From a plasmid: a stretch of DNA of 64,000 nucleotides. The DNA is taken from NCBI RefSeq assembly GCF_988243305.1, contig NZ_OZ547137.1, one strand, 5' to 3'. Positions 36,001 through 64,000 of the stretch are shown here, one piece after another. Numbering within the stretch: the stretch's first letter is position 1; every line of letters starts with the position of its first letter. A program made the position numbers.

Positions 36001-39000
36001 AACGGAAGAGCGCTAACTGCCATGCTCAGTCTGCAAAACATCAGTAAACGTTTCGACGGCAAACCGGCGCTCAGCGCCCTGTCGCTGGATATCCACGAAG
36101 GCGAATTCGTGGTGCTGGTCGGCCCGTCGGGCTGCGGGAAAAGCACCCTGCTACGCCTGCTCGCCGGGCTGGAACCGGTCAGCGAAGGCCAAATCTGGCT
36201 GCATGATGAGAACATCACCGCCACCACGCCGCGCGATCGCAACTTCGCGATGATCTTCCAGAACTATGCCCTGTTTCCGCATCTGTCGGTGCGCGACAAC
36301 ATCACCTTCGGCATGAAGGTGCGCAAGGAAGAGAAAAGCAGCTGGCAGCCGCGAGTGGATAAAGTGGCGCAGATGCTGCAGCTGGAGGCGCTGCTCGACT
36401 GCAAACCGGCGAAGCTCTCCGGCGGCCAGCGCCAGCGGGTGGCGATGGCCCGGGCGATTGTGCGTAATCCGCGGCTGTTCCTGATGGACGAGCCGCTCTG
36501 CAACCTCGACGCCCGCCTGCGCAGCGAAGTGCGCGACAGCATTATGGCCCTCCATCAGCAGCTGAAAACCAGCACCATCTATGTGACCCACGATCAGACC
36601 GAGGCGATGTCGATGGCCGACCGCATCGTGGTGATGAACGGCGGCCACGTGCAGCAGGTCGGGCACCCGGAGTATCTGTACGCCAACCCGGCCAACCTGT
36701 TCGTCGCTGGGTTTATCGGTTCGCCGGCGATGAACCTCCTGTCGCTGCCCTGCGCCAACGGTGAAGTACTGTTGGGAGAACAGCGCCATCCGCTGCCGCC
36801 GCGCCACCGGGATCAGACCCGCGTCTGGCTGGGCGTTCGCCCGGAACATATTACCGACCACGTGGAGGAGGACCATCTGCGCCTGCCGGCCACCGTTCTG
36901 CAACGAGAACTGATGGGAGCCGATTATCTGCTCCACGTCAGCACCCCGATCGGCACCCTGCGCTTTAGCCGCCGCAACCGCGGCAAGGTGCCGGAGAAAG
37001 ACGAGTCGCTACCGATCGGCTTCTCGCCTGCCGATGTGCATCTTTTTCATGCTGAGACCCAGCATAATTTACAGATGGAGACAGATCATGTTTAAACCCC
37101 TCACCGCCCTGACGGTTGGGCTCAGCCTTGCCCTGAGCGGCGCGGCGCTGGCGAAAGAGAAAATAGACTTTATGTTCCCGGCGCCGGTGGACGGCAAGCT
37201 GACCATGGAGATGACCCGCGTCATTAAGCAATTCAACGACTCGCAGCAGGATGTCGAAGTGCGCGGAATCTTCACCGGCAACTACGACACCACCAAGATC
37301 AAAGCCGAATCGGCGCAGAAGGCCGGCCAGCCACCGGCGCTGGTGATCATGTCCGCCAACTTCACCACCGATCTGGCGCTGAAGGATGAGATCCTGCCGA
37401 TGGATGAGCTGTTTAAATATGGCGATCAAAAGGCCGGCAATTTTCTGCAAACGGAATTCTGGCCCGCGATGCATAAGAACGCCCAGGTGATGGGCACCAC
37501 CTATGCGATCCCGTTCCATAACTCGACGCCGCTCCTCTACTACAACAAGACGATGTTCGATCGGGCCGGGATCCAACAGCCGCCGCAGACCTGGGCCGAG
37601 TTGCTGGCCGATGCCAAAAAGCTGACCGACGAGAGCACAGGCCAGTGGGGGATCATGCTGCCGTCGACCAACGACGACTTCGGCGGCTGGATCTTCTCGG
37701 CGCTGGTGCGCGCCAACGGCGGAAAATACTTTAACGAAGACTATCCGGGCGAGGTCTATTACAACTCGCCGACCACAATCGGCGCCCTGCGCTTCTGGCA
37801 GGATCTGATCTACAAAGACAAGGTGATGCCGTCCGGGGTGCTGAACTCGAAACAGATCAGCGCCGCGTTCTTCTCCGGCAAGCTCGGGATGGCGATGCTC
37901 AGCACCGGCGCGCTGGGCTTTATGCGTGAGAACAGCAAAGACTTTGAGCTTGGGGTAGCTATGCTGCCAGCCAAAGAGCAGCGCGCAGTGCCGATCGGCG
38001 GCGCCAGCCTCGTAAGTTTTAAAGGCATCAGCGAGGCGCAGAAGAAAGCAGCGTATCGGTTCCTGACCTATCTGGTGAGCCCCGAGGTGAACGGCGCATG
38101 GAGCCGCTTCACCGGCTACTTCTCGCCGCGCAAGGCGTCATACGATACGCCAGAGATGAAGGCCTATCTGCAGCAGGATCCGCGGGCGGCGATTGCGCTT
38201 GAGCAACTGAAGTACGCCCATCCATGGTACTCCACCTGGGAGACCGTCGCCGTGCGTAAGGCGATGGAGAACCAGCTGGCGGCGGTGGTCAACGATGCCA
38301 AAGTAAGGCCGGAAGCCGCGGTACAGGCGGCGCAGAAGGAAGCTGACGCGCTAATGAAACCCTATGTGGATAAGACCGCGTTGTCGGAAGTGAAGTGACG
38401 CGTTACCCGTCATCGTCACCCTCATCCTGGCCCTCTCCCTGAGGGCTGTCTCTTGATCAGATCTCCTGATCAAGAGACTTCATCACCAGGTAACCCTCAA
38501 CCATATCCTGAAGTCTGAACCAGCCATCCCACATAACTACCCAACCGGGGCGGCCTGTGCGTTTGCTGTCATACCATCGCCCCAGTTTCGCCAGTTTCAG
38601 ACAGGCCCATTTCAGTGTCGGCGTCTGTGACGGAAGCGGTTTTCCTTCCAGCTTAACCCACAGCAATTTCCACTCTGTCGGCGCCAGTATTTTCTCACAG
38701 CTGTCATTTTGTGTTTCTTCACTGATACCTCCCTGCCGCAGGCCCAGCACCCGTACCGCTATAAAGGGGTTTGGGGAGCAATGGAACAGTAACGCCGTTA
38801 AGAGGTTAATTAAAATAGCCAATTATCTATTAATCAATAAATTATACATCTTCATTGAACGCCCTCAGCTCACCCTTACTGACTGATTCCGGCACTATAA
38901 ATGAATAGCGCCCTTGCATATTAATATGCCCGCACTGTAATGGTGACAGTTTCTCAACGTCTGAATCCAGGACCGGGTACCCCTCACGCCTGAGCTGCTG

Positions 39001-63000: not shown

Positions 63001-64000
63001 AGAAAAGGAGACCTTCGTACACAGTTTGGGGTGATTTTTTTCCGGAGGAAATATGAATACGTTATCCTTCTTATTATTCAGTGAAGAAGAATCTCTCTTT
63101 ATTACACTAGGCAAAATTTGCGTCGCGTTTATCCTTGGTGGCATTATTGGCCTTGAAAGAGAATCGAAAGGGAAGCCTGTTGGATTTAAAACGTGCGTCA
63201 TTATTTCAGTCGCCAGTTGTGTTCTGACAATTGTATCGATTCAGTCTGCAGAATATTACGCTGAAATCTCGATGAATATACGTAGCGATCCGATGCGACT
63301 GGCAGCACAGATTATCAGTGGTGTAGGTTTTCTCGGCGCAGGTGTTATCCTTCATCGCCATGACGATGCTATATCTGGACTAACAACTGCAGCTATCGTT
63401 TGGGCTTCGGCTGGGGTGGGCATTACATGTGGTGCTGGGTTTTATATGCATGCTTTGGTTACCACTGCTTTGTTCATGATTGCAATAAAACTCAGCTATT
63501 TTGTGCTCTTTTTGCAAGCTAAGAATCAATTTCCGGGTAAAGTAAAAGTTCATGTTACTCTTGACGAAAGATCAGGGCTACAAGCCCTGATAGAGTGTAT
63601 TAATCAACAAAAAAATATTATTGAAGCGTTCACTATTCGCGATGTTAAAAAGGGAAGAATAGAAATTAACCTTAAGGTCGTGATTAGAAAAAAAATGATA
63701 TTACCAGAACTATACCATTCACTCTCTAAGCTTGAACATGTTTGCGCTATCGCGCTGGAACACTGAAAGCATCGATTAGAGGCTAAAACAGCAATAAAAA
63801 CATTCACAATAACAATTAGTCAAGTCTGGATATCATATGTTCACAGAGGCAGAAGGCTCTGTGTTAATTGGTACTACAGGAATTAAATAATGGTACCCCC
63901 TACTGTACTAGCTGTCTCTTGATCAGAGCTCCTGATCAAGAGACTTCATCACCAGGTAACCCTCAACCATATCCTGAAGTCTGAACCAGCCATCCCACAT

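Follow-up and report, generated by a model that had tools for sequence, protein, structure and literature searches.

Two ISEc13 remnants of separate origin flank a 25-kb accessory region on an IncF-type Escherichia coli plasmid

Background

ISEc13 is a known insertion sequence of the IS4 family and a relative of IS50/Tn5; the literature on it is thin, with the name occurring as a single mention per paper. In a record that carries a complete copy (L002), where PGAP names the gene "IS4-like element ISEc13 family transposase", the element is approx. 1549 bp long, shows CTGTCTCTT... at both ends and is flanked by a 9-bp target duplication (GCTTCACGC). The reference ISEc13 transposase has 457 amino acids and matches the family profile NF033590 (E = 3e-154; 514 bits vs. 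a cut-off of 160), and its residues 6-453, i.e., the full length, match the Tn5 transposase structures (PDB 1MUH and 4DM0; E = 6e-84). The outer-type end of ISEc13 is CTGTCTCTTATACACAAAT, which we take to be close to the IS50 outside end.

We analyzed a window of 64,000 nucleotides from a plasmid (contig NZ_OZ547137.1, assembly GCF_988243305.1), for which a preliminary description had noted two directly repeated IS50-like ends around about 25 kb of IS-rich cargo and had proposed that they can mediate deletion or amplification of everything between them. The window is 99.98% identical to NZ_CP196121.1, whose genes include those for a RepB-family replication initiator and for agg3 fimbriae; the host is an IncF-type E. 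coli plasmid, most closely related to an enteroaggregative-type AAF/III (agg3) plasmid. Overall, we conclude, with a probability of about 0.86, that the two ends are separately acquired, non-functional ISEc13 remnants that bracket the region without the ability to mobilize it.

Results

The two 19-bp termini, CTGTCTCTTGATCAGATCT (38446-38464, plus strand) and CTGTCTCTTGATCAGAGCT (63912-63930, plus strand), are 25,466 bp apart and on the same strand. With up to 3 mismatches allowed on both strands, these are the only two sites of the terminal 19-mer in the window (100 shuffles gave an expectation of 0.00). Between the start of the 19-mer and the end of the window, copies 1 and 2 are identical at 88 of 89 positions, the sole difference being T vs. 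G at position 17, so that direct reading confirmed both the common orientation and the single-base difference that had been described. The terminus starting with CTGTCTCTT is present at 38446 and 63912, and the complete ISEc13 copy of L002 has an identical end; both remnants represent the ISEc13 end that bears the transposase C-terminus. The copy 1 19-mer presumably matches the IS50 inside end, including its two GATC sites, and we take the ISEc13 DNA to depart from that of IS50 directly after these 19 bases. The element at both termini is ISEc13, and both should be annotated as ISEc13 remnants, not as IS50; the description of the ends as IS50-like was sound, as the transposases of ISEc13 and Tn5 can be aligned from end to end (E = 6e-84). 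The features of the region are listed in Table 1.

Table 1. Features of the window at and between the two ISEc13 remnants
Feature	Position	Strand	Basis or remarks
ABC-transporter substrate-binding gene	37088-38398		upstream of the copy 1 flank
Left flank of copy 1, CACCCTCATCCTGGCCCTCTCCCTGAGGG	38410..38445	.	left half of a G+C-rich palindromic repeat, the ISEc13 insertion site
ISEc13 remnant copy 1	38446..38765	-	320 bp; 97.2% identical to complete ISEc13 (L002:3001-3320)
Transposase C-terminal coding remnant of copy 1	38457-38765	-	103-aa translation; NF033590 match
Tn3-family terminal inverted repeat, GGGGTTTGGGGAGCAATGGAACAGTAACGCCGTTAAG	38766..38802	+	37 bp; read directly; adjoins and truncates copy 1
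Tn3-family transposase C-terminal fragment	38842..39057	-	NF033527 positions 893-953 of 954, E = 1e-17; PGAP in L001 agrees
IS3-family element, frameshifted transposase	39058..40371	+	PGAP; ALIL pseudoknot at 39393-39509
Four-carbon acid sugar ("tetronate") cluster	41103..46904	.	PGAP of L001 (99.98% identical)
Intact IS3-family element, ISEc31-like	46970-48229	-	PGAP
Other IS3-family element, 913-bp fragment	48230-49142	-	inverted repeat of the element at 39058..40371
PatB/MalY C-S lyase and NhaC antiporter pair	49562..52184	+	TIGR04350, E = 6e-111; PGAP
ISEc38 (ISL3 family) transposase gene, split	52441..57644	-	truncated ISL3 transposase match
Chromosome-type segment: polysaccharide deacetylase fragment, panD, Rpn-family fragment	58324..59294	.	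PGAP
panD	58509-58889	-	TIGR00223, E = 2e-67
MFS transporter, LacI regulator, nucleoside hydrolase and MgtC/SapB block	59281..63911	+	arrived with copy 2
ISEc13 remnant copy 2	63912..64000	-	89 bp visible before the window end; same end and orientation as copy 1

Copy 1 had been described as truncated after about 320 bp, and the match to ISEc13 is exactly this long. Its 103-aa translation covers NF033590 positions 314-405 of 405, i.e., the last 92 (E = 1e-30); at 107 bits it falls below the whole-protein cut-off of 160 because it is a stub, and PGAP labels its counterpart in a relative "IS4 family transposase, missing N-terminus". The adjoining repeat GGGGTTTGGGGAGCAATGGAACAGTAACGCCGTTAAG has the GGGG...TAAG form that we take to be typical of Tn3-family repeats and is presumably similar to the repeat of Tn1000. 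A 355-bp segment across copy 1 and its right junction recurs in 209 plasmids with an identity of at least 99%, in many of them at one place per record. Many IncF-type plasmids have no copy 2 but carry copy 1, together with its left and right junctions, as a fixed feature (e.g., pJJ1887-4).

On its left side, copy 1 is flanked by CACCCTCATCCTGGCCCTCTCCCTGAGGG, which aligns with the left arm of a repeat found between lldD and trmL in E. coli. The inside-type end of ISEc13 holds an inverted internal copy of its own terminus (bases 1-15 vs. 21-35), and the perfect two-ended version of this arrangement, CTGTCTCTTGATCAGATCTCCTGATCAAGAGACAG (35 bp), stands alone in a large share of E. coli genomes. 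In the chromosomes sampled, the 33-bp terminal palindrome occurred alone once per record; in the one inspected, it lies in the lldD-trmL spacer, where it forms the center of the palindromic repeat, in a position that almost coincides with that of copy 1 in the similar repeat on the plasmid. We considered whether the palindrome is a proliferating miniature element and rejected this, as it stands alone once per sampled chromosome and looks like a relic. That ISEc13 might target the apex of palindromes and leave a defined terminal-hairpin footprint is a conjecture that we regard as quite improbable; we know of no such targeting or footprint for IS50-type elements.

Copy 2 runs off the window, as had been noted. 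Across 56314-64000 the window is 99.97% identical to NZ_CP196121.1, where copy 2 is reduced to 251 bp and an IS110-family remnant comes next. All 19 complete plasmids with the MgtC junction of copy 2, NZ_CP196121.1 among them, show MgtC, 251 bp of ISEc13 and the IS110-family remnant in one alignment piece, and PGAP labels the C-terminal stubs in relatives "incomplete; missing N-terminus". Judging from these 19 relatives, the ISEc13 homology of copy 2 in the plasmid studied here would be expected to stop approx. 251 bp in (near 64162), followed by GGGGTCACGAAAATTATTGTACTATAAGG... and the IS110-family remnant. The preliminary description had held that its pairing would fall if copy 2 proved unrelated beyond the first 90 bp; in the relatives the homology continues to 251 bp, so that this refuting outcome did not arise there, although their copy 2 falls short of a complete element.

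The block that precedes copy 2 has a chromosomal counterpart. Window positions 59281-64000 align at 98.6% identity with the chromosome of E. coli SMS-3-5 (L004:4856-9601) in a single alignment that passes through the junction into ISEc13; in SMS-3-5 MgtC is followed by an ISEc13 transposase gene of 1374 bp that contains an internal stop. In many E. coli chromosomes the MFS–LacI–nucleoside hydrolase–MgtC block adjoins a near-full-length ISEc13, and the chromosomal MgtC|ISEc13 locus was also brought up by the amplification-junction search described below. Copy 2 and the chromosomal copy of SMS-3-5 both have G at position 17, which neither copy 1 nor the reference ISEc13 has.

Annotation and profile matches placed all of the cargo previously named (i.e., the tetronate cluster, the lyase/NhaC pair and panD) between the termini, in an interval that is indeed rich in IS elements. 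The tetronate cluster encodes a GntP permease, a PdxA-family dehydrogenase, a four-carbon acid sugar kinase, a DeoR regulator and a KpsF/GutQ isomerase; the PdxA match passes its cut-off (5e-146), and the kinase matches to two NCBIfam models fall short of the curated cut-offs (D-threonate kinase, 3e-75; 3-oxo-tetronate kinase, 1e-38). The IS3-family element at 39058..40371 forms an inverted repeat with 48230-49142 (914 bp at 99.6%) and is reversed in orientation as compared to pJJ1887-4. At 52737/56314 the ISEc38 gene is split by an IS3-family element of 3.58 kb, which in turn contains a group II intron (ltrA at 53343-54866, RF00029 at 53253-53339; TIGR04416, E = 9e-102); the window matches L001 on either side of the split, with an 8-bp overlap at L001:17822-17829. 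Neither the E. coli genome set nor PLSDB contained a record with this arrangement.

On the reading proposed in the preliminary description, crossover between the two copies would lead to loss or tandem amplification of the 25-kb cargo and hence, in nature, to plasmid variants. The direct orientation and the near identity of the visible part are as this would require, and minimal segments for RecA-dependent exchange in E. coli are roughly 25 bp long. Compared with the 251-bp stub of the relatives, copy 1 shows 11-12 mismatches in approx. 250 bp (~95% identity) and a longest perfect run of 72 bp; this homology exceeds the minimal RecA length, but the substrate is short and mismatched. We built two chimeras, one for deletion (left flank of copy 1, shared IS stretch and right flank of copy 2, the latter from L001) and one for amplification or an excised circle (MgtC flank, IS and Tn3 flank of copy 1), and searched 5,426 complete E. 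coli genomes and the 72,556 plasmids of PLSDB for records covering at least 80% of a chimera. The deletion junction was absent from both collections, the best matches being ordinary copy 1 at 64% coverage, so the isolates with a deletion product that had been suggested as a check did not turn up; likewise, no record in either collection spanned the amplification junction. Sequenced plasmids with both copies number only about 19, which is a small sample for catching rare products; copy 1 is kept in all 19. The hundreds of plasmids that carry copy 1 only retain its Tn3 junction and are therefore not deletion products.

The window also holds repeats that are longer and more identical and are thus better recombination substrates than the ISEc13 stubs, i.e., a direct ISEc38 repeat (1-1379 vs. 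56360-57738; 99.9%) and IS3-family copies that form repeats of 799-914 bp. Overall, deletion or amplification between the ISEc13 copies is possible in principle, but the pair offers only a weak substrate to RecA-dependent deletion or duplication, no products of which were detected, and we consider it unlikely that natural variants arise in this way. Of the earlier proposal, the direct orientation and the possibility in principle stand; a meaningful bracket does not, given the separate histories of the copies and the lack of recombinant junctions in the genomes and plasmids searched.

We also considered whether both copies descend from one ISEc13, either through a recent duplication or through plasmid-chromosome cointegration via ISEc13 followed by F-prime-like aberrant excision. 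The topology (plasmid gene and IS, chromosomal block and IS, plasmid) is what F-prime-type capture via a shared IS would be expected to give. However, the copies differ at 11-12 of some 250 positions, the truncation point and right flank of copy 2 differ from those of copy 1, and the polymorphism pattern is uniform and lineage-specific rather than mosaic. Moreover, a crossover inside ISEc13 would swap in the chromosomal IS body, whereas copy 1 has kept its ancestral 320-bp truncation and its Tn3 junction, and we rejected such a capture for this reason. Descent from a single ISEc13 is thus highly improbable.

A complete element would show an inverted end on either side and a target duplication of 9 bp, whereas copy 1 ends at 320 bp against the Tn3-family repeat and copy 2 is internally truncated in the relatives and hence without an outer boundary. 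The partner end CTGTCTCTTATACACAAAT had no match in the window with up to 3 mismatches, and the window contains no ISEc13 transposase gene beyond the C-terminal stubs. As there is neither a transposase gene nor an opposite end in the window, and as the orientation is direct, the remnants are unable to move or to mobilize the 25 kb between them; they are remnants of ISEc13-family members and not functional members. Although accessory cargo is flanked by IS50-family termini, a composite Tn5-like transposon, or another ISEc13-mobilized unit that imported the 25 kb whole, is already contradicted and deserves almost no credence, as a composite transposon would need inverted outer ends and at least one functional transposase gene where here the same end occurs twice on the plus strand with no inverted partner, as copy 1 and its junctions are older than the cargo in many plasmids, and as the cargo is a patchwork of separate origins with its own IS3, ISL3 and IS66 elements.

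Discussion

These data establish which element forms both termini, what lies at their junctions and that the two copies have separate origins; the state of copy 2 beyond position 64000, taken from relatives, and the order of events are proposed here. Copy 1 probably inserted long ago downstream of a sugar ABC-transporter operon, in the palindromic repeat found there. Its truncation at position 320 by a Tn3-family transposon would have followed, and the resulting scar would have become fixed and been inherited by many plasmids. Copy 2 probably arrived in the chromosomal MFS–LacI–nucleoside hydrolase–MgtC block, with ISEc13 already beside MgtC, and would have been trimmed to 251 bp once on the plasmid.

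The bracketing of 25 kb looks like an ordinary accident of plasmid assembly. The accessory region (tetronate cluster, C-S lyase/NhaC, panD, nucleoside hydrolase/MgtC) is best seen as a patchwork that built up beside an old ISEc13 scar and not as an ISEc13-bounded mobile unit. Models of the stability of this plasmid region should start with the repeats of ISEc38 and of the IS3 family, which are long and nearly identical, and not with the ISEc13 stubs. The remnant pair is ordinary and of an already known kind, and the overall importance of the result is little.

As compared to ISEc13 itself, copy 1 shows 97% identity over its 320 bp and shares the 19-bp terminus and the transposase C-terminus, but of the ~1549-bp element the window contains only 3' stubs, one of 320 bp and one with 89 bp in view, with no intact transposase gene and no outer end. 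With IS50/Tn5, the relationship is one of full-length transposase homology (E = 6e-84), although the two transposases are clearly diverged in the alignment; moreover, Tn5 has two inverted IS50 copies with outward outside ends, whereas the ends here are of the same type and in direct orientation. From the IS-rich regions of IncF/pAA virulence plasmids the locus differs in nothing qualitative, the IS3-family/group II intron insertion in ISEc38 being the only window-specific feature, and it shares with them chromosomal metabolic blocks interleaved with nested and truncated IS elements.

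Identity of the terminal sequences

The preliminary description had reported two IS50-like termini in the same orientation at positions 38446 (copy 1) and 63912 (copy 2), differing by one base at position 17, and both direct reading of the sequence and a mismatch search bear this out. A search of both strands of the whole window with the 19-bp end (up to 3 mismatches) yielded these two sites only (0.00 expected from shuffles). Their starts are 25,466 bp apart and, from the 19-bp end to the end of the window, 88 of 89 bases are identical, position 17 being the sole difference.

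The 325 bp from 38446 have matches in many E. coli records; where the element is complete, its PGAP name is "IS4-like element ISEc13 family transposase". A complete ISEc13 (approx. 1549 bp, positions 3001-4550 of our extracted locus) is found in the yccJ-agp interval of chromosome NZ_CP014111.1, with a 9-bp target duplication (GCTTCACGC), CTGTCTCTTGATCAGATCT at one end, CTGTCTCTTATACACAAAT at the other, and a 457-aa transposase on the strand opposite to the plus strand of the window. This transposase matches NCBIfam NF033590 (E = 3e-154) and, over residues 6-453, structures of Tn5 transposase (E = 6e-84); "IS50-like" is thus a fair label, and the proper name of the element in the window is ISEc13. 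CTGTCTCTTGATCAGATCT matches the IS50 inside end and CTGTCTCTTATACACAAAT is close to the IS50 outside end; the first 16 bases of this outer end (CTGTCTCTTATACACA) match the engineered Tn5 "mosaic end". Both copies in the window represent the transposase C-terminal-side end, with a transposase remnant on the minus strand.

Within locus positions 2990-4560, a G+C-rich hairpin (CTCCCCCGC...GCGGGGGAG) lies between yccJ and agp; the complete ISEc13 occupies its apex, and the 9-bp duplication of the element spans the hairpin loop. The ISEc13 terminus also occurs alone, as a perfect two-ended palindrome of 35 bp (CTGTCTCTTGATCAGATCTCCTGATCAAGAGACAG), in the lldD-trmL spacer of E. coli BL21 (positions 2501-2535 of the extracted spacer locus), a version matched at ≥99% by 1,996 E. 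coli records. At this site K-12 and O104:H4 carry an intact palindromic repeat element, whose centre the 35-bp palindrome replaces; the element is missing from strain GN4738. In the window, the left flank of copy 1 (cf. 38410-38480) represents the left arm of a similar repeat, interrupted at nearly the same point.

Cargo and recombination substrates

Annotation and profile matches confirm the cargo previously described (tetronate cluster, lyase/NhaC pair and panD segment); IS3, IS66, ISL3 and Tn3 remnants and a group II intron lie between the cargo genes.

Features of the window
Feature	Position	Orientation	Detail
Copy 1, 19-bp end	38446-38464	+	CTGTCTCTTGATCAGATCT; direct reading
Copy 2, 19-bp end	63912-63930	+	CTGTCTCTTGATCAGAGCT; direct reading
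Tn3-family-type terminal repeat	from 38766		GGGGTTTGGGGAGCAATGGAACAGTAACGCCGTTAAG, 37 bp; adjoins end of copy 1
Group II intron, RF00029	53253-53339		within IS3-family element
Group II intron, ltrA	53343-54866		within IS3-family element
ISEc38 repeat	1-1379 vs 56360-57738	direct	99.9%
IS3-family repeat	39058-39971 vs 49142-48230	inverted	99.6%
IS3-family repeat	48348-49146 vs 55523-56320	direct	95%
Cargo: GntP permease, PdxA-family dehydrogenase, four-carbon acid sugar kinase, DeoR regulator, KpsF/GutQ isomerase			
Cargo: PatB C-S lyase and NhaC			
Cargo: panD segment	58324-59294		with fragments of chromosomal neighbours
Cargo: MFS–LacI–nucleoside hydrolase–MgtC block			

The panD gene is a second, plasmid-borne copy beside fragments of polysaccharide deacetylase and Rpn-family genes, which we take to be its neighbours on the K-12 chromosome; if so, this would make the segment a small captured chromosomal piece. 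The intron-bearing IS3-family element (3.58 kb, 52737-56320) interrupts the transposase gene of ISEc38, what appears to be an 8-bp duplication accompanies the insertion, and this three-level nesting was absent at the site in every record of the E. coli genome set and PLSDB. A strong full-length Rfam match to the Hfq-binding sRNA isrC (48039-48161, minus strand, 142 bits) sits in an ISEc31-like IS3-family element, close to the 5' end of the transposase gene.

Deletion or amplification of the cargo by homologous recombination between the two copies, as proposed earlier, is possible in principle. Chimeras representing the predicted deletion and amplification/circle junctions were built and searched for, and neither was covered at ≥80% by any record among 5,426 complete E. 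coli genomes or 72,556 PLSDB plasmids. The window contains much better recombination substrates than the ISEc13 stubs. The ISEc38 direct repeat (1379 bp of this element, spanning 56 kb, with the first copy running off the window start) is a far superior deletion substrate, and the four-carbon acid sugar cluster lies between the two arms of the 914-bp inverted IS3-family repeat, an element with an ALIL pseudoknot. The IS3-family element adjoining copy 1 and the Tn3 stub is inverted as compared to pJJ1887-4, a plasmid that also carries copy 1, which suggests a past inversion and that IS3-family copies, rather than the ISEc13 stubs, reshaped the region.

The anatomy of the two copies excludes transposition: they are direct repeats of one and the same end, each has only a stub of the transposase gene, and no outer-type ISEc13 end (up to 3 mismatches) was found in the window.

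Separate histories of the two copies

ISEc13 homology in copy 1 covers exactly 320 bp (38446-38765), in agreement with the truncation initially noted. The adjoining Tn3-family terminal repeat is followed by a fragment whose match to a Tn3-family transposase profile is confined to the last 61 positions; together these indicate that a Tn3-family transposon broke into the ISEc13 of copy 1, the remainder of which is gone. The 355 bp across copy 1 and this junction were found at ≥99% identity in 209 plasmids, many with one place per record, and pJJ1887-4 shows the same succession of substrate-binding gene, ISEc13 stub and Tn3 stub as the window, without copy 2. This makes copy 1 an old scar tied to a sugar ABC-transporter module.

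Positions 22916-64000 are collinear with plasmid NZ_CP196121.1 save for a 3.58-kb insertion at 52737-56314 (99.98% identity for 34909-52737 and 99.97% for 56314-64000). NZ_CP196121.1 carries a RepB-family replication initiator and agg3 (AAF/III) fimbrial genes, which identify the setting as an IncF-type plasmid of the enteroaggregative type. In this plasmid and NZ_CP117007.1, copy 2 amounts to a stub of approx. 251 bp, beyond which lie unrelated DNA and an IS110-family remnant. A query comprising MgtC, the 251-bp stub and its right flank was 96-100% covered in 19 plasmids (one alignment piece in 17, two in 2), all 19 of which had two ISEc13 places, i.e., also carried copy 1. From these 19 relatives we infer the same approx. 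251-bp state for copy 2 beyond position 64000, where the window ends.

In many E. coli chromosomes the MgtC flank leads into at least 320 bp of ISEc13. Strain SMS-3-5 has the whole MFS–LacI–nucleoside hydrolase–MgtC block at 98.6% identity to 59281-64000, and after it an ISEc13 transposase gene of 1374 bp that contains an internal stop; this chromosomal copy shares G at position 17 with copy 2, in contrast to the T of copy 1 and of the reference ISEc13. These findings indicate that copy 2 came in with its chromosomal neighbours, to be shortened afterwards.

Over the approx. 250 bp in common (copy 2 taken from NZ_CP196121.1), the copies show 11-12 mismatches and a longest perfect run of 72 bp; their left flanks, right flanks and truncation points (320 vs 251) all differ. 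Origin of both copies by a single duplication is rejected on these mismatches, flanks and truncation points. Nor are they halves of an F-prime-like capture via ISEc13, because copy 1 retains the ancestral Tn3 junction.

Overall, the 25-kb bracket has no demonstrated biological meaning; copies 1 and 2 are dead ISEc13 remnants, independent of each other, within an ordinary region of plasmid accretion.
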